The notes below the pieces were generated by a model that made no database searches, was not told the DNA's origin, and worked only from the letters and a program-made list of their open reading frames with translations. Shown in pieces: positions 7,001 through 28,085 of a stretch of DNA of 32,000 nucleotides. Each line of letters opens with the position of its first letter. Position 1 is the first letter of the stretch. This DNA is from Bryobacterales bacterium (lineage in GTDB: Bacteria > Acidobacteriota > Terriglobia > Bryobacterales > Bryobacteraceae). Location of the stretch: NCBI GenBank assembly GCA_963803725.1, contig CAWDOH010000017.1, positions 214,722-246,721 of the forward strand, in the 5' to 3' direction. The translations under genes were made by a program, and so were the position numbers.

Positions 7001-7412
7001 ACCGCAACTGCCCTCCAATTGCACCGCGATTCATGGCACCAGCACGCCGCCCTGCTGGACCACCGCCGATTTCGAAACTTACAACTCCACTTCGGGAGTG
7101 GCCACGCCGGTACAGAACAACTTCGGCGAAACCGGTCCCGGGGTTTTCCGCGGCCCCGATTTCTTCGATATCGATACGCAGCTCACCAAGAAGTTTTTCG
7201 TCAAGGAAAAGTATGCCTTCGAGTTCGGAGCGCAGGCCTTTAACACCCTGAACCACCCGAACTTCGGCAACCCCACGGCTTCCATCACCTCAGGAACCCT
7301 GGGCACCACCACCAGCGTTGTCGGCCCCACTACCAGCCCCTACGGTTCGTTCCAATCGTCCACTATCGTAGGAGGCCGGCTCATCGTAGTCACGGCGAAG
7401 TTCAGCTTCTAG
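4010..7412 (+). pseudogene. TonB-dependent receptor with N-terminal carboxypeptidase-regulatory-like domain, split by a +1 frameshift near 5840
   Basis: ORFs 4010..5866 and 5874..7412 are collinear with the paralog at 9086..14132. The gene has a signal peptide (…LLLGAGAPAAYSQ), a CarboxypepD_reg-like beta-sandwich (GDIVGTVTDVTGAVIPNAKITV…GQYRFSLLQPGNYTV) and a C-terminal …VTAKFSF. Removing one T from AGCTTCCCTG (5837-5846) gives IRMSSLGAYAQDEWKVRRNLTL, which matches the paralog's FYVQDEWAATRSLKL. Confidence 0.8.
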
Positions 7413-8749: not shown

Positions 8750-9085
8750 GCATCTATCCGATCGCAGGGGTTTGCTCAAGTTGAGTTGCATGAAGTTTTA
8801 GCCCGCCCGGAAATGGGCGCTGCCCGCCCTTCCAGGTTGCCCTGTGTCCGCCTTTTCTGCGCGCGGATGGGTCTGGACTGCCGGTTTTTCCCGGCGGTAG
8901 GCCCGGTTGGCGGAAGCCCTGCCGCTCCCGCTTCCTGCTCAAGCTGAGTTAGCTTGTTTCACCGGCTTGCATTCACACGGCAACTTGGTTATAACTGTTC
9001 CCATAGTTGCCAGCCCACTTGTTGCCTAGCGCGCATCCTTTGGCAATTCGAATCGGAGTTAGTTCGTAACACCAGGAGGTTCATT

Positions 9086-14132: not shown

Positions 14133-14167
14133 CGAAGCCGTGGAATAAATCCAACTCGCCCAGGCTG

Positions 14168-14204
14168 GGGTAGTGGCGCAAGGTTGTGTTTAGCGCCACT
14201 ACCC
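14168..14204 (+). terminator. hairpin downstream of receptor 2 (candidate terminator, no U-tract)
   Basis: GGGTAGTGGCGC (14168-14179) pairs with GCGCCACTACCC (14193-14204) around a 13-nt loop, about 35 nt after the stop at 14132. Confidence 0.35.
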
Positions 14205-14582
14205 AGGCTGGCGCCTACGCCACAACGTGGGGCATGCTTCAGCTTGCCCCGGTCATGCTTTTAGCCCTGCTTCGATCTCTCCACGGCCTTTTTACGCGCG
14301 AGGCCCCGAAACCAACGCCCGGAGCCGCGACCGGAGGGAGCGGTTCCAAAAGCCTTCCCCCGCCCTCAACCTCTCCAGCCTATATCCAGAGGCGAATGGC
14401 GATGCTCCGGATGCCCAGTGCCCCGCCGCTTTTTCGCGGTGGGGCAGGCTTTTCACTTTCCCGGAACCTTTTTCTCGGGATCTGCCGCGATCTTGCCTCC
14501 CGGCCGCTCTTCCACGCACCCCTTCGCCCGCCCCGTGCATCCATAGGATCGGTAGAGATAAGTGCTTTGAAATGCGCTATCC

Positions 14583-14591
14583 TGTTATAAT
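14583..14591 (+). promoter_or_regulatory. extended -10 promoter TGTTATAAT upstream of ispH
   Basis: This is a perfect TGnTATAAT. Its 3' end is 17 nt before the ispH ATG (14609), which implies a very short leader with no evident SD. Confidence 0.4.
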
Positions 14592-14608
14592 TTAAACAAC
14601 TCACCACT

Positions 14609-15580
14609 ATGCCTCTTAAGCCTTTCGCACCAGGATGCGGCGCGGAGAAAAAGATCTTTTTGCTTAAACCGCGCGGTTTTTGCGCCGGGGTGGTTCGCGC
14701 GATCGATGTGGTCAAGATCGCGCTCGATCTCTACGGCCCGCCGGTCTACGTGCGCAAGGAAATCGTCCACAACAAGCATGTGGTGGATGAGTTACGCGAA
14801 GCCGGAGCCGTCTTCGTCGAGGAGCTGGATGAGGTCCCCGCCGGTGCCCGCGCCATCTTCAGCGCCCACGGCGTGGCCCCCTCGGTGCGCCGCGAGGCCC
14901 GCGAGCGCCGCCTGGACGTGATCGACGCCACCTGCCCCCTGGTCACCAAAGTGCATCTGGAAGCCGTGCGTTTCGCGCGCGACGGGTTCAGTATCGTACT
15001 CATCGGCCACAAGGACCACGACGAGGTCATCGGCACCCTCGGCGAAGTACCCGAGCGCAGTTACCTGGTGGAAACCGTCGAGGATGTGGATCGCCTGGAT
15101 TTGCCCGATCCCACGCGCGTCCGCTATCTCACCCAAACCACCTTGAGCCTCGACGAAACCCGCGAGATCGTCAACCGCCTCAAGCAGCGCTTCCCGCTCG
15201 TCCAGGGACCTCCCGCCCAGGATATCTGCTATGCCACCGAGAACCGCCAGATGGCCGTCAAGGCGGTCTCCGAGTTTTGCGACCTGTTGCTGGTAGTAGG
15301 ATCGCAGAACAGTTCCAACTCCAAGCGGCTCGTCGAGGTGGGTGACAATTTCGGAGTCCGTTCGTACCTGGTGAACGACCGTACCGATATCGACACCCTG
15401 TGGCTGGAAGGCGTGCGCAATGTGGCCGTCACCGCAGGCGCTTCGGCGCCGGAACACCTGGTCCAGGAATTGATCGAGTTCCTCAGGGAACGGGGCTTTC
15501 ATAACATGGAGGAACTGGAGTTGGTGGAGGAGGACGTGCGGTTTTCCCTGCCGGGCGAACTCATGATTTCGATCCAATGA
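14609..15580 (+). CDS. ispH: 4-hydroxy-3-methylbut-2-enyl diphosphate reductase (IspH/LytB)
   Basis: The N-terminus …KPRGFCAGVVRAIDVV, together with ATCPLVTKVH and SSNSKRL, carries the three conserved Cys contexts of IspH. The length (323 aa) is typical. Confidence 0.9.
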   Translation: MPLKPFAPGCGAEKKIFLLKPRGFCAGVVRAIDVVKIALDLYGPPVYVRKEIVHNKHVVDELREAGAVFVEELDEVPAGARAIFSAHGVAPSVRREARERRLDVIDATCPLVTKVHLEAVRFARDGFSIVLIGHKDHDEVIGTLGEVPERSYLVETVEDVDRLDLPDPTRVRYLTQTTLSLDETREIVNRLKQRFPLVQGPPAQDICYATENRQMAVKAVSEFCDLLLVVGSQNSSNSKRLVEVGDNFGVRSYLVNDRTDIDTLWLEGVRNVAVTAGASAPEHLVQELIEFLRERGFHNMEELELVEEDVRFSLPGELMISIQ

Positions 15581-17517
15581 GCGCGTCGGTACAAGTCGGA
15601 AGTACACTCGAAGCGGCGGCGCGGCACGCCGCCCGCAGGGCCTCGGCTTTCCTGGCCCAGATGCAGAAGCCTGATGGCCATTGGTGCGCGGAGCTTACCG
15701 CCGACACCACCCTCGAGTCCGACTACATCCTGTTTCAACTGTGGCTTTACCCGCCCGAAAAAGGCCGCTGGAATCCCCAGACGCGCCGCCTCATCGATAA
15801 AGCTGCGCGGTCCATCCTCGACCGCCAGTTGCCCGATGGCGGTTTCAACATCTACGTCGGCGGGCCGTCCGAAGTCAGCGCCTCGGTGAAGGCGTATTTC
15901 TCGTTGAAACTCGCGGGCCTGGATGTGGACGATCCGCGCATGGCGCGCCTGCGGCGGCGCATTCTGGAGTTGGGCGGCATTCAGGCGGCCAATAGCTACG
16001 TAAAAGTCAACCTGAGCCTCTTCGATCTCTACCCGCGGCAGTATTGTCCCAGCATTCCGCCCGAAGTGGTGCTGCTGCCGTTCCATTTTCTGTACCAGAT
16101 GTCTTCGTGGACCCGCGCCATCGTAGTCTCGCTGTCCATTGTCCACTCCTCCAATCCGCGGCGTTCCGCGCCCGCCGGCTTCACCCTGGATGAGATTTGG
16201 CTGCCGGGCGCCAGCCCCGAATTCCAGCGGGACCCCAACTGGGTCACCTGGCATAACCTCTTCTTAGCGGCCGACGGTTTTCTGAAATGGTGGGAGCGCC
16301 ACGGCAGCCAGTCCTTGCGCCGCAAGGCCATTGCCATTGCGCGCGAGTGGATGATCGAGCGCATGCGCCACTCCGATGGATTGGGCGCCATCTACCCGCC
16401 CATGATGTATTCGGTCATGGCGCTCGATTGCCTGGGCTACGCCAAAGACGACCCGCTCCGCCTGGAAGCCCTCCGCCAGTTCAACAAGCTGATGGTGGAC
16501 GATGGCAAACGCTTCTTCATCATGCCCTGCTTTTCGCCGGTGTGGGACACCGCCATCGGCGCCTTTGCTCTCGGCCAGGCCGACCCCGAGCACCCAGCCC
16601 TGCGGGGGGCAGCCGATTGGCTGCTGGCCCGCGAAGTGCGGCGCAAAGCCGATTGGTCGGTGAAGCGGCCGCATACCGAACCCTCCGGCTGGGCCTTCTT
16701 CTATCAGAACGAGCACTATCCCGATGTGGACGATTCGGCCATGGTCATGCTCGCGCTGGCCGATTCGGCCGGATCGAATCCCGCAGCCCAGTTGGCCTGT
16801 CACAAACGCGGTGTGGACTGGCTGCTGGCCATGCAATCCGGCGATGGCGGCTGGGCGGCCTTCGACGCCGATAACAACTGGGAGTTTCTCAACGGCGTGC
16901 CCTTCGCCGATCACAATGCCATGCTCGACCCCACCTGCGCGGATATCACCGGCCGCGTGCTGGAGGCGCTCGCGGCGCACGGCGTGGAACGCAGCCATCC
17001 GGGGATGCGACGCGGCGTGGACTGGCTGGTGCGCCACCAGGAGGCCGACGGAAGCTGGTACGGCCGCTGGGGCGTGGCGTACATTTACGGCACCTGTTTT
17101 GCACTGCGCGGCCTGGCCGCCTCCGGCGAAAGCGATCGCGAGGCCCACGTGCTCCGCGCCGGCGAGTGGCTGCGCTCCATCCAGAATGCCGATGGCGGCT
17201 GGGGCGAAAGCTGCGCCAGCTACGAGAACCGCGTCTTCACCCCCGCTCCCAGCACCCCTTCGCAAACCGCCTGGGCTCTCATGGGACTGATCGCCGGCGG
17301 AGATGCCGCCAGCCTCAGCGTGCAGCACGGCATCGAATATTTATTGGAAACGCAGCGCGAAGACGGAAGCTGGGCCGAAACCCTCGCCACCGGCACCGGG
17401 TTCCCGCGCGTGTTCTACCTGAACTATCATCTCTATAAAGACTATTTCCCCTTGCTGGCGCTGGCTGCTTTCGTCAGGACCCGCTCAAGCTCGCATGGTT
17501 CCAATTCCCGTGGTTAA
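15577..17517 (+). CDS. shc: squalene-hopene cyclase
   Basis: The ATGA overlaps the ispH stop. The catalytic DxDD motif is present (YPDVDDSAMV). Multiple QW repeats are present (MQKPDGHWCAE, QSGDGGWAAF, HQEADGSWYGRWG, IQNADGGWGE, TQREDGSWAE). Length is 646 aa. Confidence 0.92.
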   Translation: MSASVQVGSTLEAAARHAARRASAFLAQMQKPDGHWCAELTADTTLESDYILFQLWLYPPEKGRWNPQTRRLIDKAARSILDRQLPDGGFNIYVGGPSEVSASVKAYFSLKLAGLDVDDPRMARLRRRILELGGIQAANSYVKVNLSLFDLYPRQYCPSIPPEVVLLPFHFLYQMSSWTRAIVVSLSIVHSSNPRRSAPAGFTLDEIWLPGASPEFQRDPNWVTWHNLFLAADGFLKWWERHGSQSLRRKAIAIAREWMIERMRHSDGLGAIYPPMMYSVMALDCLGYAKDDPLRLEALRQFNKLMVDDGKRFFIMPCFSPVWDTAIGAFALGQADPEHPALRGAADWLLAREVRRKADWSVKRPHTEPSGWAFFYQNEHYPDVDDSAMVMLALADSAGSNPAAQLACHKRGVDWLLAMQSGDGGWAAFDADNNWEFLNGVPFADHNAMLDPTCADITGRVLEALAAHGVERSHPGMRRGVDWLVRHQEADGSWYGRWGVAYIYGTCFALRGLAASGESDREAHVLRAGEWLRSIQNADGGWGESCASYENRVFTPAPSTPSQTAWALMGLIAGGDAASLSVQHGIEYLLETQREDGSWAETLATGTGFPRVFYLNYHLYKDYFPLLALAAFVRTRSSSHGSNSRG

Positions 17518-17535
17518 GGCTATGAAAGTTACGCT

Positions 17536-18642
17536 ATGAAATTTCCCATCTCGATGACCGCCGGCCTGGCCCGATACATTTTCAAAAACAAGATGCATCC
17601 GCGTCCGGAGTGGCAGAAGACCGCGGCGGTGGCCCCGGATGCCGCCAATCCGTTCCGCATCCTGGCCTCCAAGACCGGCGCCAAGAGCCAGCCGCATCCC
17701 ATGATCCACAAGCGCTTTCCGATCGTCCTGATGCTCGAGCCGCTGCACGCCTGCAACCTCACGTGTACCGGCTGCGGCCGCATTCGCGAGTACGAAAGCA
17801 CCATCACCGAGCGCGTCCCGCTGGAAGAGTGCCTCTCGGTAGTGGATGAGTGCGGCACGCCCATCGTCTCCATCTGCGGCGGCGAGCCCATGATGTACCC
17901 GCAGATCGGCGAGCTGGTGGCCGGCATCCTGGACCGCAACCGCCACATCCTGCTGTGCACCAACGGCATGTTCATCAAGAAGCGCCTCCACGAGTTCACC
18001 CCCGACCCGCGCTTTTACTTCAACGTCCACCTGGACGGCATGGAGAAGAATCACGACATCGCCGTGGAGCGCGAAGGCGTCTTCCGCGAAGCCATCGAAG
18101 GCATCCGCGTGGCTAAGGCGGCCGGCTTCAAAGTCTGCACCAACACCACGGTCTATAAAGAGACCGACATGCGCGAAATTGAGGAGCTGTTCGAGTATCT
18201 CAAGCAGTTCAACCTGGATGGCCACCAGATCGCGCCGGCCTATGGATATTCCGCCGTCAACGACCGCGAAATTTTCATGACCCGCGATGACGTGCACGAA
18301 AAATTCCGCGAGTTCGACCGCATTGCCAAAAAGTACAATGTCCGCCAGACCCCCGTGTACATGGAATTCCTGCGCGGCGAGCGCGAGCTGCCCTGCACCG
18401 CCTGGGGCAATCCCACTTACAACGTGAAGGGCTGGAAGGGTCCGTGTTACCTGATCACCGACGGCCATTACAAGACCTTCGAAGACCTGATGACCCAGAC
18501 CCCCTGGGAAAGCTATGGCCCCGGCAACGACCCGCGCTGCGAGCACTGCATGATGCACTGCGGCTTCGAACCCTCCGCCGCCCTCGGCATCAACGCCAAA
18601 TTCAGCGACAATTTCAAGCTCTTGAGCTGGATGCTGCGCTAA
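17536..18642 (+). CDS. hpnH: adenosyl-hopene transferase, radical SAM enzyme HpnH
   Basis: The radical-SAM motif LEPLHACNLTCTGCGRIREY (CxxxCxxC) and SICGGEP are present. The conserved C-terminus includes CTAWGNPTYNVKGWKGPCYLI and RCEHCMMHCGFEPSA. Confidence 0.88.
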   Translation: MKFPISMTAGLARYIFKNKMHPRPEWQKTAAVAPDAANPFRILASKTGAKSQPHPMIHKRFPIVLMLEPLHACNLTCTGCGRIREYESTITERVPLEECLSVVDECGTPIVSICGGEPMMYPQIGELVAGILDRNRHILLCTNGMFIKKRLHEFTPDPRFYFNVHLDGMEKNHDIAVEREGVFREAIEGIRVAKAAGFKVCTNTTVYKETDMREIEELFEYLKQFNLDGHQIAPAYGYSAVNDREIFMTRDDVHEKFREFDRIAKKYNVRQTPVYMEFLRGERELPCTAWGNPTYNVKGWKGPCYLITDGHYKTFEDLMTQTPWESYGPGNDPRCEHCMMHCGFEPSAALGINAKFSDNFKLLSWMLR

Positions 18643-18678
18643 CCGGCCCCCTTAGTCGGCCGTGCTACCTTGGTCATT

Positions 18679-18942
18679 ATGATCACCGTGCAAGAGGCTT
18701 CCGCGCGAGCCATGGAATATGCCCGCGAAGTGCTCGGCGACATGACTTACACCCTGGAGGAGTTTGAGTTGCGTTCGTACCAGGACAGGCCGTTCTGGTA
18801 CATCACCCTCGGCTTCCCGACGCGGCGTCCCCCTGCACCGGAACTACTCCAATTGATTGGCACTGCTTTGCCGCTGGAGTATAAAACCTTTCTGGTGGAT
18901 GCTGCCAGTGGGGAACCGATCGCCATGAAGTTGGCGAGCTGA
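18679..18942 (+). CDS. small hypothetical protein (87 aa), translationally coupled to the PIN gene; possible non-canonical antitoxin
   Basis: ATG lies at 18679, with an alternative TTG at 18670. The stop TGA shares one nucleotide with the next ATG (TGATG at 18940-18944). No RHH/AbrB/Phd-type DNA-binding motif was recognised. Confidence 0.45.
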   Translation: MITVQEASARAMEYAREVLGDMTYTLEEFELRSYQDRPFWYITLGFPTRRPPAPELLQLIGTALPLEYKTFLVDAASGEPIAMKLAS

Positions 18943-19433
18943 TGACCGATTATGAGCGGTTCGGCCGGGATGCCCGCTCCCGAGGTGTCCTGATCGACAC
19001 GAACCTGCTGGTGCTATTGATCGTCGGTTTAGTCAATCGCGATCGTATCCCGCAATTTAAGCGGACCAGCCACTTCAGCGCCAAGGATTGGAACGTGCTC
19101 GCTGCAATGCTAGACCATATCCCACGCAGGTACTGCGTGGCGCACATCCTCGCGGAAGTGAGCACCCTGACGGACATGCCAGGCCCGGAACGTTTCCTCG
19201 CAAGAGGAGTATTACACCGGACTATTTCCGGTTTAGAGGAAGTGCCCATCGCCAGCCTGGATGCCTGCAAGTCTCCCTATTACCGCCGTCTTGGCCTGAC
19301 CGATGCAGCCATCGTCCTCATCGCCCAACAGCGCGGCTGTTCGGTCGTCACCAACGATTCCGCCCTGTACCTGGCTCTCATGGAGGAGGGCGCTTCCGCC
19401 ATCAACTTCGATGACCTCCGAAATCTCCTCTGA
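18942..19433 (+). CDS. PIN-domain protein (putative ribonuclease toxin)
   Basis: Four acidic positions sit in PIN-typical contexts: VLIDTNLL, ILAEVSTL, GLTDAAIV and VVTNDSAL. Length is 163 aa. Confidence 0.6.
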   Translation: MTDYERFGRDARSRGVLIDTNLLVLLIVGLVNRDRIPQFKRTSHFSAKDWNVLAAMLDHIPRRYCVAHILAEVSTLTDMPGPERFLARGVLHRTISGLEEVPIASLDACKSPYYRRLGLTDAAIVLIAQQRGCSVVTNDSALYLALMEEGASAINFDDLRNLL

Positions 19434-20324
19434 CCATCTCCGGCTCTCCCGCCTTTCTCCGCGCTTCCTCCGCCCCCTCGGCGTCTCTGCGGTGAATCCC
19501 ACTCCCCCCACTCCTCCGCCTCTCCGCATCTCCCCGCCGAACCCGCCCGCGCCCTCGCGCCTCAAAGCCCCCTCTTGCCTTTCTCCGCGTTTCCTCCGCT
19601 CCCTCCGCACCTCTCCGGAAACTCCGCTTCCTCTACGATCTTTCCTGACCTTGGGTCTTCTCCGCGATTCCTCCGCGTCTCCGCGTCTCCGCGTCGAATG
19701 GGACCCGCCGCTGGCCTGTCGGGAATTTCCTCGCCGCAAGAACACCGACAGGTCCGCGGTGAATCCCACTCCCCCCACTCCTCCGCCTCTCCGCATCTCC
19801 GCGCCGAACCCGCCCGCGCCCTCGCGCCTCAAAGCCCCCTCTTGCCTTTCTCCGCGTTTCCTCCGCTCCCTCCGCACCTCTCCGGAAACTCCGCTTCCTC
19901 TACGATCTTTCCTCACCTCGGGTCTTCTCCGCGATTCCTCCGCGTCTCCGTGTCTCCGCGTCGAATGGGCCCGGCCGCTGGCCTGTCGGGAATTTCCTCG
20001 CCGCAAGAACACCGACAGGTCCGCGGTGAATCCCACTCCCCCCACTCCTCCGCCTCTCCGCATCTCCGCGCCGAACCCGCCCACGCCCTCGCGCCTCAAA
20101 GCCCCCTCTTGCCTTTCTCCGCGTTTCCTCCGCCCCCTCCGCACCTCTCCGGAAACTCCGCTTCCTCTACGATCTTTCCTCACCTTGGGTCTTCTCCGCG
20201 ATTCCTCCGCGTCTCCGTGTCTCCGCGTCGAATGGGCCCGGCCGCTGGCCTGTCGGGAGTTGCCTCGCCCCGAGAACATCGACATAAATCGATGCCTGTG
20301 CTCCGCGGTGAATCCGAGGCCCTC
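19434..20324 (+). repeat. tandem array of three ~267-bp C/T-rich repeats plus partial copies
   Basis: The phase marker GCGGTGAAT occurs at 19489, 19756, 20023 and 20305, giving periods of 267, 267 and 282 bp. Units 1 and 2 are nearly identical, and unit 3 diverges at its 3' end. Each unit contains the hairpin CCTGTCGG…CCGACAGG (for example 19715-19722 with 19745-19752). The array fills the whole gap between the PIN stop and the hpnA ATG. Confidence 0.9.
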
Positions 20325-21308
20325 ATGAAACCCGCCCTGGTCACCGGCGCCTCCGGCTTCCTCGGCTGGCACGTCGCCCGCGTGCTCCTCGAACGCGGCC
20401 ACTCCGTGCGCGCCCTCGTCCGCCCCGGCAGCCGCGTCACCGATCTCGATGTAGAAACCGTCACCGGCGACCTCCGCGACCGCGCCTCCCTCGACCGCGC
20501 CGTCCAGGGCTGCGAACTGCTCTTCCACGTCGCCGCCGATTACCGCCTGTGGGCCCGCCATCCCGAGGAACTCTACCGCTCCAACGTAGACGGCACCCGT
20601 AACCTGTTCGAAGCCGCCCGCGCCGCCGGCATCCAGCGCGCCGTCTACACCAGCACCGTCGGATGCATCGGCATTCCCCCCGGCGGCATCGGCGACGAAG
20701 ACACCCCCGTGTCCCTCGCAGACATGGCCGGCCCCTACAAACGCTCCAAGTTCCAGGCCGAACAAGTGGCCCTGCAATTTGCCCGCGACGGCTTCCCCGT
20801 GGTCATCGTCAACCCCACCGCGCCCATCGGCGACCACGACGTGAAGCCCACCCCCACCGGCAAAATCGTGGCCGACTTCCTGGCCGGCGCCATGCCCGCA
20901 TTCATCGACACCGGCCTCAACGTAGTGGATGCCCGCGACACCGCCGAAGGCCACTGGCTCGCCTGCCAGCACGGCCGCGTGGGCCAGCGCTACATCCTCG
21001 GATCGGAAAACCTCACCCTGGCGGAAATCCTGCGCAAGCTCGCCCGCATCACCGGCCGTAAAGCCCCCACCGTGCGCCTGCCCTACGCGGTTGCCTGGTG
21101 CGCCGGAGCCTGCTCCACCGCTTGGGCGCAAATCACCGGCATCGCCCCGCGCGTCCCCCTGGACGCCGTCCGCATGGCGCGCAAGAAAATGTGGGTGAGT
21201 CACGAAAAAGCCGCCCGCGATCTCGGCTTCCATCCCGGCCCTGCCGATGTCGCCCTCGCCCGCGCCGTCGCCTGGTTCGAGCGCCGCGCCCAGGCGCCCG
21301 CCGCGTAG
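20325..21308 (+). CDS. hpnA: hopanoid-associated NAD-dependent sugar epimerase/dehydratase HpnA
   Basis: ATG at 20325 gives MKPALVTGASGFLGWHVARVLLERGHSVRALVR, the GxxGxxG Rossmann motif. The catalytic YxxxK context is present (PYKRSKFQAE). The gene sits in hopanoid-cluster context. The part of ORF 19575..21308 upstream of this ATG is translated repeat sequence. Confidence 0.75.
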   Translation: MKPALVTGASGFLGWHVARVLLERGHSVRALVRPGSRVTDLDVETVTGDLRDRASLDRAVQGCELLFHVAADYRLWARHPEELYRSNVDGTRNLFEAARAAGIQRAVYTSTVGCIGIPPGGIGDEDTPVSLADMAGPYKRSKFQAEQVALQFARDGFPVVIVNPTAPIGDHDVKPTPTGKIVADFLAGAMPAFIDTGLNVVDARDTAEGHWLACQHGRVGQRYILGSENLTLAEILRKLARITGRKAPTVRLPYAVAWCAGACSTAWAQITGIAPRVPLDAVRMARKKMWVSHEKAARDLGFHPGPADVALARAVAWFERRAQAPAA

Positions 21309-21320
21309 GACTCGAAGCCC

Positions 21321-22013
21321 ATGCGCATCCTCCTGGTGGCCGCCGATCCCCGCGAGTTCTCAGGCATGCTTTCGCTCGCCTCCGACCACGGCCCCGTCCC
21401 CCTGGGCATCGATTGGGGCCGCTGCGCCCGCCTCGGCGACCACGATGCCCTGCTCATCGCCAACGGCGCCGGACGCGCCCGTGCCGGCGCCGCCGTCGAC
21501 GCATCCGACGAGTTCGGCCCCGATGCCGTGGTCAGCACCGGCTTCTGCGGCGCCCTCGACGAACGCCTGGATGTCGCCGATGTGGTGCTGGCAACCTCCA
21601 TTGACGATGGGCAGCGGCGCTTTTCCGCACTGCCCGCCGAAGGACCGGGTGAAACCTTTACCGGTCCCATCCGATCTATTGAACGAGTAGTATTGAGCGC
21701 AGAGGAGAAGTGTTTACTGCGGAATTCGGGTGCCTGCGCCGTGGAAATGGAGGCCGCCGGAGTGGCCGCCCGCGCGCTGGAACTGGGGTTGCCCTTTTAT
21801 TGTGTGCGTGCGGTAACTGATTTAGCGGAGGAATCGCTGGCAAATGATTTTAATCGGGCCCTCCGTCCGGACGGTCATTTCGATACAATGAGTATTCTAT
21901 TGGGGGCCTTGCGTGATCCGGCCGTCCGCCTGCCGGAGTTGCTTCGCCTACGGAAGCGATCGATCCAGGCGGCACGCGCACTGGGGGAGTTTTTTGCCAA
22001 TTGCCGATTGTGA
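21321..22013 (+). CDS. hpnG: hopanoid-associated nucleosidase/phosphorylase HpnG (PNP_UDP family)
   Basis: The 230-aa product has the PNP/MTA-nucleosidase-like pattern (VVSTGFCGAL, AVEMEAAGVA, VRAVTDLA). It lies immediately after hpnA in a hopanoid locus. Confidence 0.7.
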   Translation: MRILLVAADPREFSGMLSLASDHGPVPLGIDWGRCARLGDHDALLIANGAGRARAGAAVDASDEFGPDAVVSTGFCGALDERLDVADVVLATSIDDGQRRFSALPAEGPGETFTGPIRSIERVVLSAEEKCLLRNSGACAVEMEAAGVAARALELGLPFYCVRAVTDLAEESLANDFNRALRPDGHFDTMSILLGALRDPAVRLPELLRLRKRSIQAARALGEFFANCRL

Positions 22014-22035
22014 CCTGAGCGATATTCCCGAAACC

Positions 22036-23091
22036 ATGCACGCGGCGGTCTATCGCGGCCAGAGTGTCGTCAGCGTCGAAGAGATTCCTACGCCCGCCAT
22101 CGGCCCCGGCGAAATCCTGATTCGCGTGGAGGCTTGCGGAATTTGCCACACCGATCTGAAGAAAATCGAACATAACTTATTGGCCCCTCCGCGCGTTTAT
22201 GGCCATGAAACTGCCGGCGTGGTCGCGGCCGCCGGCCCCGGCGTCGAAAAGTTCCAGCCCGGCGATCGCGTCGTCGCCTTTCACCACATCCCCTGCCTCG
22301 AATGCTTCTACTGCCGCCGTAAGATCTACGCCCAGTGCCCGGTCTACAAACGCGTGGGAATCACCGCGGGCTTCGAGCCCGCTGGCGGCGGCTTTGCCCA
22401 GTACGTGCGCGTCATGGACTGGATTGTGGCTCGCGGCGTGGAGCGCATCCCCGCCGGCATCTCCTTCGAGCGCGCCACTTTGGTGGAACCCCTGAACACC
22501 TGCCTCAAAGCCGTGGTGCAGTGCGATCCGCAGCCCGAAGATACCGTGCTCGTCATGGGCCAGGGACCTATCGGCCTCATGTTCACCATGCTCGTCGCCC
22601 GCACCGGCGCGCGCGTGGCCGCAACCGATACCATCGCCGAGCGGCGGACCCTTTCCTCCCGCTGCGGCGCCGCCTTCACCTGGGATCCGCGCACTGCCGA
22701 CATCCCCGCCGAATTGCGCCGTCTCACCGGCGGGCGCGGCGCCGACCTGGTGATTGTAGCCGTTTCCACACCCGGCATCGTGCAGCAGGCCATTGCCGGC
22801 TCCCGCCCCGGCGCCCGCATCCTGCTGTTTGCCCAAACCGCCGCCACCGAGCGGATCGAGGCCTCCGGCGCCGAGATTTGCGCCGGTGAACGAACCCTGT
22901 TTGGATGTTATAGTGCTTCGGTGGACTTGCAAAAGGAGTCCGCAAATCTGGTTTTTAACGGCGAACTGCCCGTGGAGGAGCTGATTTCCCATTGTTTGCC
23001 GTTGGTTAAAATCCGTTCAGGAATGGATTTGGCATTGCATCCGGGACCTAAATCGTTGAAAATAATCGTTCAGCCACAGAGGTGGTCATAG
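22036..23091 (+). CDS. zinc-dependent medium-chain dehydrogenase/reductase (alcohol/polyol dehydrogenase family), copy 1
   Basis: Catalytic Zn motifs are ACGICHTDL and YGHETAGVV. The structural Zn cluster is CLECFYCRRKIYAQC. The nucleotide-binding motif is VMGQGPIGL. Confidence 0.8.
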   Translation: MHAAVYRGQSVVSVEEIPTPAIGPGEILIRVEACGICHTDLKKIEHNLLAPPRVYGHETAGVVAAAGPGVEKFQPGDRVVAFHHIPCLECFYCRRKIYAQCPVYKRVGITAGFEPAGGGFAQYVRVMDWIVARGVERIPAGISFERATLVEPLNTCLKAVVQCDPQPEDTVLVMGQGPIGLMFTMLVARTGARVAATDTIAERRTLSSRCGAAFTWDPRTADIPAELRRLTGGRGADLVIVAVSTPGIVQQAIAGSRPGARILLFAQTAATERIEASGAEICAGERTLFGCYSASVDLQKESANLVFNGELPVEELISHCLPLVKIRSGMDLALHPGPKSLKIIVQPQRWS

Positions 23092-23102
23092 TGAAGAGCC
23101 AC

Positions 23103-24131
23103 ATGATGGCTGCTGTGCTTTACGGCAAGGAACACTTGCAGGTTGAGCCGGTGGCCATTCCCACAATTCAAAGCGGAGACATTCTCGTACGAGTGAAAGT
23201 GGCGCTGACCTGCGGAACCGATGTCAAGGTTTTTCGCCGTGGTTATCATGCTCGAATGATCGTCCCGCCCGCTGTTTTCGGGCACGAACTGGCCGGCGAC
23301 GTGGTCGCCGTAGGCGAGGATGTCACCAGGTTCTTGGTCGGGCAACGCGTCGTGGCGGCCAATTCGGCGCCCTGCGAGCAATGCTATTTTTGCCGTCGCG
23401 GTTTGCAGAATCTCTGCGACGACCTGCTGTTTAACAACGGCGCCTACGCCGAGTATATTCGCATCCCCGCCCGCATCGTGGAACGGAACACCTACCTGCT
23501 TCCCGCGCACGTGGATTATCAGGATGCCGCCCTGGTCGAGCCTTTGGCGTGCGTCGTGCGCGGCCTCGAGGAAACCAATCCCCAGCCCGGCGATACCATG
23601 GCCATCATCGGCCTCGGCCCCATCGGCCTCATGTTCGTGAAGCTGGCCAAGCTCTACGGCTGCCGCGTCATCGCCGTGGGCCGCCGCAAAACCCAGTTGG
23701 ATCGCGCCGCCCTCCTGGGCGCCGACGAGCTGGTCGTCGGCAGCGATGAAGCCAACCCCGTCCGCACCATCCGCGACCTCACCCACGGACTCGGCGTGGA
23801 TGTGGCCATCGAAGCCGTCGGCCAGCCGCTTACCTGGGAGTGGGCCGTCGGCATGGTCCGCCGCGGCGGCACCGTCAATTTCTTCGGCGGCTGCCCCAAC
23901 CACAGCACCGTCAATCTCGATACCGCCCTGCTGCACTACTCCGAAATCACCTGCAAAGCCAGCTTCCATCACACCCCGGCGTACATCCGGAAGGCGCTGG
24001 ATCTGATTTATCAGGGGCACATCGCGGCTTCGTTCTTCGTCAACAATCAGGAGCCTCTGGCCAACCTGCTGGAAGTGATGCGCCACCTGATGAGCCACAA
24101 CGGCCATTTGAAAACGGCCATCGTTCCGTAA
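23103..24131 (+). CDS. zinc-dependent medium-chain dehydrogenase/reductase, copy 2
   Basis: Motifs are LTCGTDVKV, FGHELAGDVV, CEQCYFCRRGLQNLC and IIGLGPIGL. The start is uncertain: ATG at 23103/23106, or GTG at 23082/23091 overlapping the upstream stop. The stop TAA directly abuts the hpnC ATG. Confidence 0.78.
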   Translation: MMAAVLYGKEHLQVEPVAIPTIQSGDILVRVKVALTCGTDVKVFRRGYHARMIVPPAVFGHELAGDVVAVGEDVTRFLVGQRVVAANSAPCEQCYFCRRGLQNLCDDLLFNNGAYAEYIRIPARIVERNTYLLPAHVDYQDAALVEPLACVVRGLEETNPQPGDTMAIIGLGPIGLMFVKLAKLYGCRVIAVGRRKTQLDRAALLGADELVVGSDEANPVRTIRDLTHGLGVDVAIEAVGQPLTWEWAVGMVRRGGTVNFFGGCPNHSTVNLDTALLHYSEITCKASFHHTPAYIRKALDLIYQGHIAASFFVNNQEPLANLLEVMRHLMSHNGHLKTAIVP

Positions 24132-25072
24132 ATGACGGGTCCGGGCGAATCCGCGTTTCTCCCGCCGGCCGAATTCGTGAGGTCGCCAGCGGCTCTTCAG
24201 AAGACTTACACCGCCGAAGAAGCGCGCCGCTACACCCGCTGGCTGGCCACCCACCACTACGAAAATTTCCACGTCGTCAGCTTCCTGCTCCCGCAGCGCC
24301 TCCATCAGGATTTCTACAACGTCTACGCCTATTGCCGCTGGGCCGACGACCTCGGCGATGAAATCGGCGATCGCGCCGAAAGCCTCCGCCTGCTCGCCTG
24401 GTGGCGCACCCAACTTGACGCCATGTACGCCGGCCGCGCCGCTCACCCCGTCTTTGTCGCCCTCGCCGGCACCGCGCGCCAATTCGCCATCCCCCGCGAG
24501 CCGTTCGCTGACCTGATCTCCGCCTTCATCCAGGATCAGACGGTCGGCCGCTACCAGCGATTGGCCCGACCTGTTCGGCTACTGCCGCAACTCCGCCAAC
24601 CCCGTCGGACGTCTGGTGCTCTACCTCTGCGGCTACTCCGATGCCGCCCGCCAGCGCCTTTCCGACGCCACCTGCACCGCCCTGCAACTGGCCAATTTCT
24701 GGCAGGATGTCACCGTCGACTGGCGCAAGGATCGCGTCTACATGCCCCTCGACGTCCTGGAGCGCCACGGCTCCAGCGTCGACGATTTGTCCGCTCCGCC
24801 GCTTCACTCCAGCCTTCCGCGATGCCATGCGCGAGATGCGTTGGCAAGGCCCGCGAACTTTTCCTCGAAGGCCTGCCGCTGGTAGGCATGGTCGACCGAC
24901 GCCTGGCGCTTGGACCTCGATCTGTTCAGCCGCGGCGGCCTGCGCGTGCTCGAAAAAATCGAGGCGGCAGGGTTACGACGTGCTCTCCGCGCGGCCGGCC
25001 ATTTCCAAGGCCGAGCGCGTGGGCCTGCTGCTGGCCTCGCTCGCCCGCACGGCGTTTGCACGGTCGGCATGA
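24132..25072 (+). pseudogene. hpnC: HpnC-type squalene synthase-family gene, disrupted by five +1 frameshifts as given
   Basis: HpnC-like segments appear in successive frames:
- frame of 24132: …HYENFHVVSFLLP…YAYCRWADDLGDE…FIQDQTVGRYQ
- then DWPDLFGYCRNSANPVGRLVLYLCGY…LQLANFWQDV…
- then RRFTPAFRDAMREM
- then VGKARELFLEGLPLVGMVDRRLAL
- then DLDLFSRGGLRVLEKIEAAG
- then YDVLSARPAISKAERVGLLL…
The frame switches lie near 24558, 24796, 24839, 24912 and 24973. Confidence 0.75.
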
Positions 25073-25945
25073 TGCACGAGATCGATCAATCCTACTCGTA
25101 CTGCCGAAGCGCGTGGCGCGCACGCGGCGCCAAAAACTTCTACTACTCCTTCCTCCTGCTCTCCGCCCAGCAGCGCAAGGCCATGTGCGCCATCTACGCC
25201 TTCATGCGCTATGCGACGACCTGAGCGATGAACCCGGCGCCATCGCGCGCCGCCATCGAAGCTGGCGCAATCAACTGGAAGCCGCCCTCGACGGCCACTT
25301 CAGCGGCCACCCCGTCTGGCCCGCCTTCCACCACACCGTGCGCCGCTTCGGCATTCCCCACCAGTACTTCCGCGAAATGATCGATGGCGTGGTCTCCGAC
25401 CTGGAGCCGCGCCGCTTCGAAACCTTCGACGAGCTATACCGCTACTGCTACCAGGTCGCCTCAGTCGTCGGCCTCACCACCATCCACATCTTCGGATTCG
25501 ATACCCCCAGCGCTCTGCCGCTGGCCGAAAAATGCGGCGTGGCCTTCCAGCTCACCAACATCCTGCGCGACATCCGCGAAGACGCCGGCCGCGGCCGCAT
25601 CTACCTGCCCGCCGAAGACCTGCGCCGCTTCGGTGTCACCGAAGACGACCTCCGCGCCGGCCGCCGCACCGGCGGTTTCGTCGAGACTGATGCGCTTCGA
25701 AGCCGCCCGCGCGCGCGCCTATTACGACGAGTCCGCGCCCCTGCTGGATCTCATCCACCCCCGCAGCCGCCCCTCGCTGCTCGGCGCTGATTTCGATCTA
25801 CTCCCGCCTGCTCGAGCGCATCGAGCAAGCCAACTACGACGTCTTCACCCGCCGCGTGCGCCTCTCCGCATTCGAAAAATCCTGGATCCTCGTCCGCGCC
25901 GCGGTAGGGCAAGCTTTAGCAGGGCCGCCGGCGGGGCCGGTTTGA
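25069..25945 (+). pseudogene. hpnD: HpnD-type presqualene diphosphate synthase-family gene, disrupted by three frameshifts as given
   Basis: The ATGA overlaps the reconstructed hpnC stop. The segments are MMHEIDQSYSYCRS…NFYYSFLLLSAQQRKAMCAIYAFMRY | CDDLSDEPG…YRYCYQVASVVGL…FQLTNILRDIREDAGRGRIYLP… | LMRFEAARARAYYDES… | LISIYSRLLERIEQANYDVFTRRVRLS…. The switches lie near 25212 (-1), 25686 (+1) and 25786 (+1). Confidence 0.75.
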
Positions 25946-26281
25946 ACGAAAGTGTGACCCGCCGCCGGCCCCGCGCCAACCAACTCGGCTATAAACCTGA
26001 GCCACAAACGGCCGCGTGAGGAGCCGCTAACTGATTGAGCGGCAATGGGGTCACAGATGAACTTGCCCGGCTTCGATTTCCTCACAGCTTTCGAGGAACT
26101 CCCCCCGGAAGTCGCTGATAACAATCGATTGGCGGGAAATCAAGAAAGAGCCAATTTGCACTGCATACAACGCGGAGTCCCTCTCCCATTAGGTCCCCGC
26201 GCCCAGCGGGCGCTTCTGAGGGACCGTCGTCAATTTCGTGGCTGCGACACGGCACCAGGCCCTCCGCCCGTCGGCGGTCGC

Positions 26282-26380
26282 CCCCAATAAAAACAACCAG
26301 CCGTCCACGAACATCTGCACCAGGTCGATCAGGTAATCGTGACGGCGGATGTGCGCCAGTTCGTGCAGCAGCAGGGCTTC
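26282..26380 (-). pseudogene. remnant of an M56 (BlaR1-like) peptidase gene
   Basis: Only the zinc-site block EALLLHELAHIRRHDYLIDLVQMFVDGWLF is recognisable within ORF 26189..26533. The transmembrane N-terminus and the downstream domain are absent. Confidence 0.45.
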
Positions 26381-26507
26381 ACCGCGGCAAACGGACTGGG
26401 GCCCCCATTCGCCATTCGCCTCGCACTCGCATCGCTTAAGATTGGCTAACACAAAAGGCTCCTGTTCCGTCTTATCGGCTGGTGTAGACCCGTAGAGGAG
26501 GGGAGAG

Positions 26508-26972
26508 ATGAAGCCAATTGAGCGTTCTGCCACAGCAATTCTCGCGATTACGGTGTGTCTTGGAATCGCTCACGCCAGCGGACCAATAGCCGTATACGCG
26601 CTCGTGGACAAGGTGGTATTCGAACCCGGCGCGGACAAGCCGGAACGTATCCGAATCTCGGGTGTCTTCATTACCGCCGTGGACGGATCGTCGGACGTGT
26701 ATTCGCCGCCCCAGCGCGGATACCTCTACTTCACGTTGCCGAAAGGCAATGAGCAACTCGCGCGGAGGGAGTGGGCCGACCTGAAGTCCATCGCCGGTTC
26801 GCGCCAGGTAGTGGGACTCGGCTCCATTTGGTTCGGCAAGGCGCAGACGCGGGTCAGGAAATCGGATGAGGAGGCCAAGTCTCCAGACGACTATCCGATG
26901 GGAAATGGCTTGGTCAAAGTAAACCCGGACCAGCCCAGGGCCAAGGCGCTGCTGGATTACAAAGATCGCTGA
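26508..26972 (+). CDS. secreted hypothetical protein (154 aa)
   Basis: GAGGAGGGGAG lies directly upstream of the ATG. The signal peptide is MKPIERSATAILAITVCLGIAHA|SG. No family was recognised. Confidence 0.6.
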   Translation: MKPIERSATAILAITVCLGIAHASGPIAVYALVDKVVFEPGADKPERIRISGVFITAVDGSSDVYSPPQRGYLYFTLPKGNEQLARREWADLKSIAGSRQVVGLGSIWFGKAQTRVRKSDEEAKSPDDYPMGNGLVKVNPDQPRAKALLDYKDR

Positions 26973-26978
26973 ACTGCC

Positions 26979-28085
26979 ATGGCATCCGTCGCATGGGACT
27001 ACGCGAAGACGGGAATCTGGCGGTTCTCCCGCCGCGACGCCATTCTGGTAGCTCTGGCTGGGCTGCACGGCGTGGTGCTGGCCGCGTGGCCGGTGGCGCC
27101 GTTGATCGCCGCGGGAGTGTGGTGGAACGCAAACACCATCGCCCACAATTTTATCCACCGGCCTTTTTTCAGATCGAAGGAACTGAACCGTGCGTTCTCC
27201 GCCGCCTTGAGTGTTCTGCTGGGCATCCCACAGACACTCTGGCGCGACCGTCATCTGGCCCATCATGCAGGCGTGTCGTGGAGCTTGCGAGTTTCGCGGC
27301 ACCTGGCCGTCGAGACGGCGCTGGTCGTTAGCCTGTGGTCTCTCCTGGCCGCACGGCACCCCCGCTTTTTCCTGCTCACCTATCTTCCGGGCTATCTCGC
27401 CGGGTTGGGGTTATGCGCAATGCAAGGGTACTGCGAGCACGCCGTAGGCCAGCCCACCAGCCACTACGGTCGCGTTTACAACTTTTTCTGCTTCAACGAC
27501 GGTTACCACGCCGAACACCACGCCGATCCCGCAATTCACTGGACCGGGTTGCCAGACTATATCGCGGATGGCGCAGCTACCAGCCGGTGGCCGCCCTTGC
27601 TGCGCTGGCTCGACGTGCCGCCGCTCGAGGCCCTGGAGCACCTCGTGTTGCTGTCCCCCCGTTTGCAGCGTTTCGTCCTGCGCAGTCATCGAAGAGCCTT
27701 TCAGCGTCTCCTCCCGCAGCTAAACACCATTCGCCGCGCCACCATTGTGGGCGGCGGGCTCTTTCCCAGAACAGCCCTCATTCTGAGAGATCTGCTTCCG
27801 TCGGCACACCTCACAATTGTGGATTCCAACGCGCGCAACCTGGAGACCGCGCGCATGTTCCTGGGCGAAACCATCGAGTATCGCAGCGAGCGCTGCACCC
27901 ATGGCGCCCCATTCGATTGCGACCTCACGGTCATTCCCTTGTGCCTGGATGGCGATCGGTCGGCGTTCTATCGCCATCCGCCCTCTGCGGCAGTCCTGGT
28001 ACATGACTGGATCTGGCGCCGCCGCGGACGCGGAACCATCGTTTCCGTGCTGCTGCTGAAGCGCCTCAACCTGGTGCGGCAATGA
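26979..28085 (+). CDS. membrane fatty-acid-desaturase-family protein fused to a C-terminal Rossmann/SAM-methyltransferase-like domain
   Basis: Three His boxes are present in canonical order (HNFIH, HLAHH, HAEHH) with hydrophobic segments between them. The C-terminal ~130 aa carry RATIVGGGLFPRTALIL…LTIVDSN…DLTVIP, a glycine-rich nucleotide/SAM-binding-like pattern. Confidence 0.65.
   Translation: MASVAWDYAKTGIWRFSRRDAILVALAGLHGVVLAAWPVAPLIAAGVWWNANTIAHNFIHRPFFRSKELNRAFSAALSVLLGIPQTLWRDRHLAHHAGVSWSLRVSRHLAVETALVVSLWSLLAARHPRFFLLTYLPGYLAGLGLCAMQGYCEHAVGQPTSHYGRVYNFFCFNDGYHAEHHADPAIHWTGLPDYIADGAATSRWPPLLRWLDVPPLEALEHLVLLSPRLQRFVLRSHRRAFQRLLPQLNTIRRATIVGGGLFPRTALILRDLLPSAHLTIVDSNARNLETARMFLGETIEYRSERCTHGAPFDCDLTVIPLCLDGDRSAFYRHPPSAAVLVHDWIWRRRGRGTIVSVLLLKRLNLVRQ

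Follow-up and report, generated by a model that had tools for sequence, protein, structure and literature searches.

A conserved pair of zinc-dependent dehydrogenases accompanies hpnC and hpnD in acidobacterial hopanoid gene clusters

The reduction of ribosylhopane to bacteriohopanetetrol (BHT) has had no assigned enzyme since its first demonstration in cell-free extracts. Geochemists make wide use of BHT and its stereoisomers as biomarkers, and few groups of soil bacteria are as abundant as the Acidobacteria. A hopanoid locus from a member of the Bryobacterales (Acidobacteriota) raises the question of whether two dehydrogenase genes located between hpnG and hpnC, designated MDR1 and MDR2, account for this reaction, as was originally predicted from their position. 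The premise of that prediction was sound, since published accounts still leave this step without an assigned enzyme. The conserved presence of a dehydrogenase pair in an acidobacterial hopanoid/squalene operon offers a concrete candidate for a redox step of the pathway. The locus was analyzed in a window consisting of the whole stretch of 32,000 nucleotides of contig CAWDOH010000017.1 (Table 1).

Table 1. Genes of the hopanoid locus in the window.
Gene	Coordinates	Strand	Product and basis of assignment
ispH	14609-15580	+	NCBIfam above curated cutoff
shc	15577-17517	+	SHC; NCBIfam above curated cutoff
hpnH	17536-18642	+	NCBIfam above curated cutoff
hpnA	20322-21308	+	Hopanoid-associated SDR ('sugar epimerase'); TIGR03466, 470 bits (cutoff 368)
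hpnG	21321-22013	+	Hopanoid-associated phosphorylase/nucleosidase; TIGR03468 best NCBIfam match; Pfam PNP_UDP_1
MDR1 (ug1)	22036-23091	+	Zn-dependent MDR dehydrogenase, 351 aa, NAD-type cofactor site
MDR2 (ug2)	23091-24131	+	Zn-dependent MDR dehydrogenase, 346 aa, NADP-type cofactor site
hpnC	24132-25072	+	Hydroxysqualene synthase; frameshifted in assembly; tblastn against intact HpnC of locus L002
hpnD	25069-25945	+	Presqualene diphosphate synthase; frameshifted in assembly

Open reading frames, Pfam matches and zinc motifs confirmed that two complete Zn-dependent MDR genes lie between hpnG and hpnC. MDR1 extends from an ATG codon at 22036 to a TAG codon (23089-23091) and starts 22 nt after the hpnG stop codon (22011-22013), the spacing on which the prediction relied. 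MDR2 is read from a GTG codon at 23091, which shares one nucleotide with the stop codon of MDR1, to a TAA codon (24129-24131) directly abutting the ATG of hpnC at 24132, again in agreement with the prediction. A second possible start codon of MDR2 (ATG 23103) would lead to a protein of 342 residues. The GTG codon is preceded, 7 nt upstream, by the Shine-Dalgarno-like sequence GAGGTGG, and the N-terminus that it specifies agrees with those of the homologues in the family alignment.

The seven genes upstream from hpnC are intact in the window, and the score of HpnG against TIGR03468 (163.7 bits) falls under the cutoff of that model (187.1). In the region of hpnC and hpnD, approximately 10 single-base insertions and 2 deletions scatter the homology over three reading frames. 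The possibility that these genes are true, old pseudogenes was rejected since removal of the inserted bases restored coding sequences devoid of internal stops, with 86% identity for hpnC (93 synonymous versus 44 nonsynonymous codon differences) and 85.5% identity for hpnD (85 versus 40). A scan of positions 14000-27000 for promoters and terminators returned counts equal to the shuffled expectation and was uninformative on the extent of the transcription unit.

MDR1 and MDR2 are members of the Zn-dependent MDR superfamily, which combines a GroES-like catalytic domain with a Rossmann cofactor domain, as both proteins matched ADH_N (PF08240) and ADH_zinc_N (PF00107) above the gathering cutoff. 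The catalytic zinc ligands are C37, H57-E58, and E151 in MDR1 and C41, H65-E66, and E150 in MDR2. The structural zinc is held by C87/C90/C93/C101 and C95/C98/C101/C109, respectively. The zinc ligands and the GxGxxG nucleotide-binding motif found in both proteins occupy positions that are invariant or nearly so in the family alignments. With Glu among their zinc ligands, both proteins fall in the same branch as the polyol and threonine dehydrogenases. The two enzymes share only 30% identity and differ in their cofactor sites. The second β-strand of MDR1 ends with Asp ('VAATD', NAD-type), and this residue, Asp198, lines up with the NAD-binding Glu of the threonine dehydrogenase (TDH) of P. horikoshii. 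The corresponding motif of MDR2, 'AVGRRK', is of the NADP-type, with Gly opposite the NAD-binding Asp of Thermus TADH, followed by Arg-Arg-Lys. From the aligned sequences, we infer that in most hpn-linked lineages MDR1 has an NAD-type site (Asp or Glu) and MDR2 an NADP-type site (Gly or Val followed by Arg or Lys). The discriminating position of MDR2 varies, being Asp in locus L088 and Glu in locus L094.

The substrate specificity of the pair was approached by comparison with curated families. MDR1 and MDR2 did not reach the curated cutoff of any NCBIfam equivalog, including the models for threonine, sorbitol, inosose, and galactitol-phosphate dehydrogenases. Thus, the closest homologues do not assign the pair to threonine or sorbitol; such an assignment would have counted against the original prediction. 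The nearest families were TDH, IolM, GatD, and SDH, all far under their cutoffs. The best NCBIfam match of both proteins was the scyllo-inosose 3-dehydrogenase IolM (NF041097), with 145 and 166 bits for a cutoff of 450. Scores against the L-threonine 3-dehydrogenase models (TIGR00692 and NF003808) were 135 to 159 bits for cutoffs of 458 and 380, and those against the NADPH-dependent aldehyde reductase Ahr (NF047908) were only 73 and 103 bits for a cutoff of 470. Judged by sequence, both proteins resemble secondary-alcohol dehydrogenases of the polyol/threonine type more closely than aldehyde reductases. The predicted structure of MDR1 was of moderate quality (pLDDT 72), and Foldseek matched it to solved Zn-ADH and TDH structures with a TM-score of approximately 0.7; these matches in the PDB were generic folds that gave no hint on the substrate. 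The model of MDR2 was unusable (pLDDT 45).

MDR1 and MDR2 are orthologues of ug1 and ug2, whose linkage to hopanoid genes is already known and whose function was reported as 'not established' in the acidobacterial clusters in which they were described (Sinninghe Damsté et al., 2017; Front Microbiol 8:968, PMC5462960). According to that study, ug1 and ug2 encode Zn-dependent alcohol dehydrogenases of approximately 370 and 350 residues, ug1 following hpnA-hpnG and ug2 preceding hpnC-hpnD-hpnE in Acidobacteria of subdivisions 1 and 3. The genes of the window agree with this description in size, position, and taxon, and they share their order with 80 Bryobacterales loci as well as with Terriglobales-like loci. 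In the published account, the two genes were assigned to separate clusters, and ug2 was reported to be lost from the clusters of subdivision 3 (PMC5462960). In contrast, MDR1 and MDR2 were always adjacent in the evaluable loci, and the pair was also detected outside the Acidobacteriota.

MDR1 followed by MDR2 was present in every evaluable locus, both in Bryobacterales genomes (73 of 73) and in metagenome loci, mostly Terriglobales-like (76 of 76). The same order was found in loci L084, L086, L088, L092 (an Armatimonadota MAG), L093, and L094. Names of cluster members, used to place the contigs without hpn genes, yielded a single taxon, Armatimonadota for P0256. MDR1 displayed 76 to 92% identity with its 80 Bryobacterales orthologues and 41 to 54% with full-length relatives from other lineages. 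With MDR1 as the query, orthologues scored about 260 bits or higher and generic MDRs no more than 216. In all other pairs examined, the gene following MDR1 was an orthologue of MDR2 (43 to 57% identity). The two genes overlap by 4 nt (stop/start) in L083, L084, L093, L094, L101, L128, L146, L167, and L170, and they are probably co-translated. Median identity was 83 to 84% for the pair, 86% for IspH, 76% for SHC, and 54% for HpnG, the lowest value in the cluster. Purifying selection on MDR1 and MDR2 is thus comparable in strength to that acting on IspH. The order ispH-shc-hpnH, as in the window, was found in 80 Bryobacterales loci. Apart from these results, three candidate HpnG-MDR fusions were discarded: P0265 is a fragment covering the end of hpnG and the start of MDR1, the fusion partner in P0267 is a sugar-1-phosphate nucleotidyltransferase, and P0391 results from read-through of MDR1 into MDR2 in an assembly riddled with frameshifts.

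The constant neighbors of the pair were hpnC and hpnD, one of which was directly downstream in 71 of 71 Bryobacterales loci, in 49 of 50 metagenome loci, in the Armatimonadota locus L092, and in L094. The linkage to hopanoid genes is therefore strongly conserved in other genomes, as the original prediction required. In comparison to the 2017 description, these results show that ug1 and ug2 form one inseparable module, that this module accompanies hpnC and hpnD across phyla, and that selection on it is as strong as on an essential enzyme. We consider it an even chance that ug1 and ug2 are a co-inherited module of two different Zn-MDR oxidoreductases serving as a lineage-restricted accessory of hopanoid/squalene metabolism rather than as a universal step. 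The pair would be the leading part of an MDR1-MDR2-hpnC-hpnD(-hpnE) unit, and MDR1 (NAD-type) and MDR2 (NADP-type) may work together as a redox couple, oxidizing and reducing a hydroxylated lipid of the hopanoid pathway at a secondary alcohol or carbonyl group. Three observations weigh against this explanation: most hopanoid producers lack the pair, five lineages harbor it without any hpn neighbor (L086/L091, L088, L093, L128, and L084), and the cofactor motif of MDR2 is not uniform.

The relationship of the pair to hpnG bears directly on the original proposal, in which one or both enzymes would be NAD(P)H-dependent reductases converting ring-opened (phospho)ribosylhopane into BHT. The pair is located between hpnG and hpnC in the Bryobacterales, where hpnG is directly upstream in 78 of 78 loci, and also in some loci of the Terriglobales. 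The published 'cluster C' consists of hpnA-hpnG-ug1 (PMC5462960). HpnA, an earlier published guess for the conversion of ribosylhopane to BHT, tracks hpnH in other phyla (PMC12583986), and its gene is directly upstream from the pair, without hpnG, in several lineages (L101, L148, L167, and L170). Polyols and sugars are substrates of the MDR family, and the NADP-type site of MDR2 would suit a reductase. However, of the 57 metagenome loci that could be evaluated, only 21 had hpnG directly upstream, no lineage outside the Terriglobia did, and the gene did not adjoin the pair in L092, L094, L101, L103, and L170. By gene adjacency, the specific tie to hpnG therefore did not appear to hold. Since the pair stays with hpnC and hpnD rather than with hpnG, a role as ribosylhopane reductase is possible but not specifically supported, and the hpnG connection should not be assumed. 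Furthermore, two enzymes that always occur together are more than a single reduction calls for, and similarity to the aldehyde-reductase MDRs was weak. C. thermophilum lacks ug2 and nevertheless produces 100% tetrafunctional BHPs (PMC5462960), and no candidate gene was found near the hpn clusters of Alphaproteobacteria (PMC12583986). We consider the reductase assignment rather unlikely.

The conserved proximity of hpnC and hpnD could point to a different role, in which the pair would act on hydroxysqualene, or on some other presqualene diphosphate-derived alcohol made by HpnD and HpnC, by oxidation, reduction, or inversion of its stereochemistry, thereby aiding or bypassing HpnE. Hydroxysqualene is the only alcohol of the HpnCDE route, is classed as a secondary alcohol in the pathway overview of PMC5462960, and would be the second candidate substrate. 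In many Terriglobales loci, MDR1 opens a separate MDR1-MDR2-hpnC-hpnD-hpnE unit preceded by unrelated genes. In some lineages, the pair is followed by hpnD without hpnC or hpnE, and hpnE was absent within 10 kb in all Bryobacterales loci. A general replacement of HpnE was nonetheless rejected because Terriglobales and Armatimonadota loci carry hpnE in addition to the pair. The part of the work of Pan et al. (2015) that is reported in PMC5462960 states that HpnC, HpnD, and HpnE suffice for squalene production in E. coli, and most bacteria harboring HpnCDE lack the pair. At the level of the family, the Cys/His/Glu plus Glu zinc site would be typical of enzymes acting on polar, vicinal-hydroxy substrates rather than on isolated lipid alcohols. 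A function in the squalene branch, with hydroxysqualene as the substrate, appears improbable. Gene adjacency by itself does not tell whether the pair acts on a squalene step or on the side chain.

It is equally improbable that the pair functions in the ordinary metabolism of soluble polyols, amino alcohols, or sugars and owes its place in hopanoid clusters to inherited gene order or co-regulation. This explanation would account for the best family matches, which are enzymes acting on soluble substrates, and for the pair lying beside unrelated genes in marine Tara contigs and in L088, L093, L128, and L084. It is opposed by the adjacency to hpnC/hpnD, which is kept at 41 to 54% protein identity in at least three deep lineages and approximately 150 loci, so that inherited gene order alone is unlikely, and, in the window and L094, by an MDR2 stop codon that abuts or overlaps the start of hpnC. 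Two further contexts are compatible with a soluble substrate: a low-specificity threonine-aldolase-like gene is located directly upstream from the pair in L092, and a cyanobacterial contig devoid of hpn genes carries a lone MDR1-like gene without its partner.

Within the explanation that we favor, an accessory redox module of the hopanoid/squalene pathway, the most plausible substrate class would be the C35 polyol or ribosyl side chain, and we tentatively propose a role of some kind on this chain. The reduction of ribosylhopane to BHT, which falls within this proposal and would most plausibly be catalyzed by the NADPH-type enzyme MDR2, is itself rather doubtful. So is the broader suggestion that ug1 and ug2 catalyze the late, unassigned reactions of the C35 side chain in members of the Acidobacteria and of a few further phyla. 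In one version of the mechanism, MDR2 would reduce ribosylhopane, or a ketose isomer of it, to BHT, and the NAD-type enzyme MDR1 would oxidize the C-34 hydroxyl, so that the two enzymes would jointly yield BHT and fix or invert its stereochemistry at C-34. Should the side-chain reading prove true, the pair would provide the first enzyme for the conversion of ribosylhopane to BHT and a gene-based marker of BHT isomers.

Several known systems resemble the pair, and each of them differs from it. The polyol/L-threonine dehydrogenase branch (TDH, sorbitol dehydrogenase, ketose reductase, and (R,R)-butanediol dehydrogenase) shares with MDR1 and MDR2 the fold, the catalytic and structural zinc sites, the Cys-His-Glu plus Glu set of ligands, and a proton-relay Thr that follows the Cys ligand. 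Its members were also the best matches found for the pair in the PDB, by sequence as well as by structure. Identity to this branch is only about 25 to 35%, and the nearest solved structures are about 25 to 30% identical. In contrast to its members, MDR1 contains its own conserved Gly-rich insertion, 'TAGFEPAGGGFA', and MDR2 its own invariant motifs, 'FFGGCP' and 'FHHTP'. IolM is likewise a Zn-MDR, acting on a secondary alcohol/ketone of a polyhydroxylated ring, but MDR1 and MDR2 score under the cutoff of its family and no inositol-pathway genes are located near the pair. HpnA is also an NAD(P)-dependent oxidoreductase of hopanoid clusters and adjoins the pair or lies near it in many loci; it differs by its SDR fold and by its wide occurrence among hopanoid-producing bacteria of many phyla, in contrast to the lineage-restricted MDR pair. 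In the Zymomonas cluster, in the Proteobacteria, the slot occupied by the pair upstream from hpnC is presumably filled by hpnA and hpnB. Finally, IolG and IolW, which convert myo- to scyllo-inositol, form a two-enzyme NAD+/NADPH stereoinversion couple. They belong to the Gfo/Idh/MocA family rather than to the MDR superfamily but resemble the pair in associating one NAD-type and one NADP-type dehydrogenase, which in IolG/IolW act on the same alcohol/ketone pair.

The hopanoid island lies on the forward strand, at 14.6–26 kb of the window, and includes two genes for Zn-dependent dehydrogenases of the MDR type, MDR1 (351 residues) and MDR2 (346 residues). The original prediction placed these two genes, intact, between hpnG and hpnC, and the ORFs, spacing and motifs confirm this observation: exactly 22 nt separate the hpnG stop codon from the MDR1 ATG, and the hpnC ATG immediately follows the MDR2 TAA, as claimed. 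MDR2 most likely starts at a GTG (23091), which shares one base with the MDR1 TAG, is preceded by GAGGTGG and gives an N-terminus agreeing with homologues. Since the top MDR1 matches in public genomes were Bryobacteraceae MAGs (91–92% identity), the host is a subdivision-3 acidobacterium.

Features of the hopanoid island and its upstream region (window coordinates).
Feature	Position	Strand
TonB-dependent-receptor-like gene, second	4010-7412	
TonB-dependent-receptor-like gene, first half	8954-10621	
Transposase-like ORF	10713-12122	-
TonB-dependent-receptor-like gene, other half	12240-14132	
ispH	14609-15580	+
shc	15577-17517	+
hpnH	17536-18642	+
PIN-like ORF	18942-19433	+
Tandem repeat, 267 bp x 3	19489-20284	
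hpnA	20322-21308	+
hpnG	21321-22013	+
MDR1	22036-23091	+
MDR2	23091-24131	+
hpnC + hpnD (both frameshifted)	24132-25945	+

In the closest relative, L002, both hpnC and hpnD are intact, and the homology of the window genes to them falls in all three reading frames. This is caused by some ten one-base insertions plus two deletions relative to close relatives, clustered within 1.8 kb; the seven genes upstream of hpnC are intact and the upstream 9.5 kb is clean. Following removal of the inserted bases, the translations were 86% identical to those of L002 and contained no internal stop codon, and the differences from L002 were mostly synonymous (93 synonymous and 44 nonsynonymous changes in hpnC, 85 and 40 in hpnD). 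Thus, the frameshifts most likely stem from misassembly or else arose very recently; the same evidence speaks against old pseudogenes. The 267-bp repeat (3.0 copies, 97% matches), which gives rise to long spurious ORFs on both strands, appears specific to this genome since only ~100 bp separate the PIN-like ORF from hpnA in L002. Upstream of the island, a transposase-like ORF, IS66-like by the look of its translation alone, splits a TonB-dependent-receptor-like gene, and a second such gene is broken into two frames at about 5866-5874.

The gene order IspH-SHC-(HpnH)-HpnA-HpnG-MDR1-MDR2-HpnC-HpnD was kept in all 80 species-level Bryobacterales genomes retrieved with MDR1. Median identity to the window proteins was 86% for IspH, 84% for MDR2, 83% for MDR1 and HpnH, 77% for HpnA and 76% for SHC, HpnG being by far the least conserved (54%). 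The score of the window HpnG, 163.7 bits, does not reach the 187.1 bits set as curated cutoff for HpnG. No hpnE was found within 10 kb of the pair in the window or in any Bryobacterales locus; hpnE directly follows hpnD in Terriglobales-like and Armatimonadota loci (L082, L083 and L092).

An exhaustive MDR1 search of 50%-identity representatives delimited the family: full-length relatives form a shell (41–49% identity, 260–350 bits), below which scores fall to 216 bits or less, the onset of generic MDRs. Terriglobales-like contigs carry IspH-SHC-HpnH-x-HpnA-HpnG-MDR1-MDR2-HpnC-HpnD-HpnE. The Armatimonadota MAG (L092) carries a threonine-aldolase-like gene, MDR1, MDR2, an 89-aa ORF and HpnC-HpnD-HpnE, with no shc, hpnH or hpnG found within 10 kb on either side of the pair. 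In a low-GC contig (L094), stop and start codons overlap within MDR1-MDR2-HpnC-HpnD, upstream of which nadA lies on the opposite strand. The second gene of every pair is an MDR2 orthologue (43–57% identity to MDR2, ~30% to MDR1). Pairs devoid of hpn neighbours were found in marine Tara contigs and in L088, L093, L084 and L128, and a lone MDR1-like gene in one cyanobacterial contig. Queuosine-pathway genes lie near two of the hpn-free pairs, in contexts otherwise unrelated, queF-II directly upstream in L084 (1130-1504) and queE two genes downstream in L088 (6015-6650), which may be a coincidence.

A metagenome scan provided 80 further loci (L095-L174), mainly Terriglobales-like, for comparison with the Bryobacterales loci (L001-L080), only evaluable loci being counted. 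The pair was present in 73/73 Bryobacterales and 76/76 metagenome loci, with HpnC or HpnD directly downstream in 71/71 and 49/50, respectively. HpnG was directly upstream in 78/78 Bryobacterales loci, but in only 21/57 metagenome loci, where HpnA (4/57) or an unrelated gene (32/57) was otherwise found, as in no Bryobacterales locus. In many metagenome loci, IspH-SHC-HpnA-HpnG lies 3–5 kb off on the opposite strand, and MDR1 comes first in an MDR1-MDR2-HpnC-HpnD-HpnE unit of its own; the genes ahead of this unit are adenylate kinase, TonB or RecN-like genes, or else phosphoketolase and acetate kinase. A divergent lineage displays the order (IspH)-HpnA-MDR1-MDR2-HpnD(-SHC), without HpnG or HpnC. 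Stop and start codons of MDR1 and MDR2 overlap by 4 nt in at least nine lineages, suggesting translational coupling. Together, these locus comparisons indicate that MDR1 and MDR2 are one module whose invariant partner is hpnC/hpnD, and that adjacency to hpnG is lineage-specific. The pair is catalytically intact, strongly selected and co-inherited within the hopanoid/squalene operon of Terriglobia, and two or more other deep lineages show it linked to hpnC/hpnD.

In L101, L120, L146, L167 and L170, which represent a divergent lineage, hpnD directly follows the pair and hpnC and hpnE are locally absent, the entire L101 cluster being IspH-HpnA-MDR1-MDR2-HpnD-SHC. Three separate lineages have a PMT_2-type membrane glycosyltransferase no more than 10 kb from the pair (L091:9885-11633, L092:128-1858 and L170:14345-16927), and a family-2 glycosyltransferase follows hpnD in L146 (3100-4119).

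MDR1 and MDR2 each contain ADH_N and ADH_zinc_N domains and, as predicted, complete zinc motifs, with a catalytic site (Cys, His-Glu, Glu) and a four-Cys structural site, both conserved across family alignments. With a mutual identity of just 30%, they represent two distinct families rather than a recent duplication. Neither reached a curated equivalog cutoff: IolM, TDH, GatD and further MDRs of the polyol type matched best, with roughly a third of the score needed, and the aldehyde-reductase model Ahr scored below these. The nearest solved structures, at ~25–35% identity, are Pyrococcus horikoshii TDH, Thermus TADH and whitefly ketose reductase. Both proteins have a Glu zinc ligand (motif VEPL) at the position of Cys174 in classical ADHs, which among MDR families is the mark of the polyol/threonine-dehydrogenase branch. 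Members of this branch typically act on secondary alcohols with a polar group alongside. Strand beta-2 of MDR1 ends in Asp or Glu in 12/12 family members examined, a residue that lines up with the Glu by which TDH binds NAD. In MDR2 of the window, Terriglobales, Armatimonadota and L084, a Gly, Val or Ala precedes Arg or Lys, the window Gly aligning with the NAD-binding Asp of TADH, which suggests NADP(H) as cofactor; L088 (Asp) and L094 (Glu) are exceptions. MDR1 contains a conserved Gly-rich insertion, TAGFEPAGGGFA, and MDR2 the invariant motifs FFGGCP and FHHTP. In one search match, P0267, a sugar-1-phosphate nucleotidyltransferase forms the N-terminal part of a fusion with an MDR1-like domain (37% identity), an architecture reminiscent of the ribitol-phosphate enzymes TarI/TarJ.

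We infer that an NAD-type MDR1 and an NADP-type MDR2 form a redox couple whose substrate is a hydroxylated lipid of the pathway. An active site of the polyol type, together with the adjacency of HpnA, whose gene tracks hpnH in other groups (PMC12583986), keeps alive a role in C35 side-chain redox chemistry, which is possible although doubtful. It would include the reduction of ribosylhopane to bacteriohopanetetrol (BHT) originally proposed, a step that still had no established enzyme as of November 2025 (PMC12583986) and which a 2026 review still draws as predicted nonenzymatic (PMC13459092). The original interpretation is thus supported in part: the premise of a missing enzyme holds, but the tie to hpnG is not conserved, a single reduction does not explain the invariable pairing, some BHT producers lack the pair, and some lineages have it with hpn genes absent nearby. 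Assignment of the pair to this reduction is a reasonable, testable hypothesis that the comparative evidence does not favour, and is unlikely. A hydroxysqualene-related role is rather improbable and unrelated soluble metabolism equally so, the remaining probability falling to some other function. Adjacency to hpnC is in itself no proof of a part in squalene synthesis, since Proteobacteria also place hpnA and hpnB in the slot directly upstream of hpnC (Zymomonas-type cluster).

The MDR-hopanoid linkage is itself already known. Sinninghe Damsté et al. (2017) described, in Acidobacteria subdivisions 1, 2 and 3, ug1, a Zn-dependent ADH of ~370 aa following hpnA-hpnG, and ug2, a Zn-binding ADH of ~350 aa ahead of hpnC-hpnD-hpnE, with functions "not established"; their candidate for the reduction step was HpnA (PMC5462960). 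C. thermophilum lacks ug2, yet its BHPs are 100% tetrafunctional (PMC5462960). Our literature search found no other paper tying these dehydrogenases to hopanoids, and a survey of alphaproteobacterial hpn clusters reported no additional candidate genes close by (PMC12583986). Relative to the published ug1 and ug2, of which MDR1 and MDR2 are orthologues, the present analysis defines the pair as a single module linked to hpnC/hpnD across phyla.
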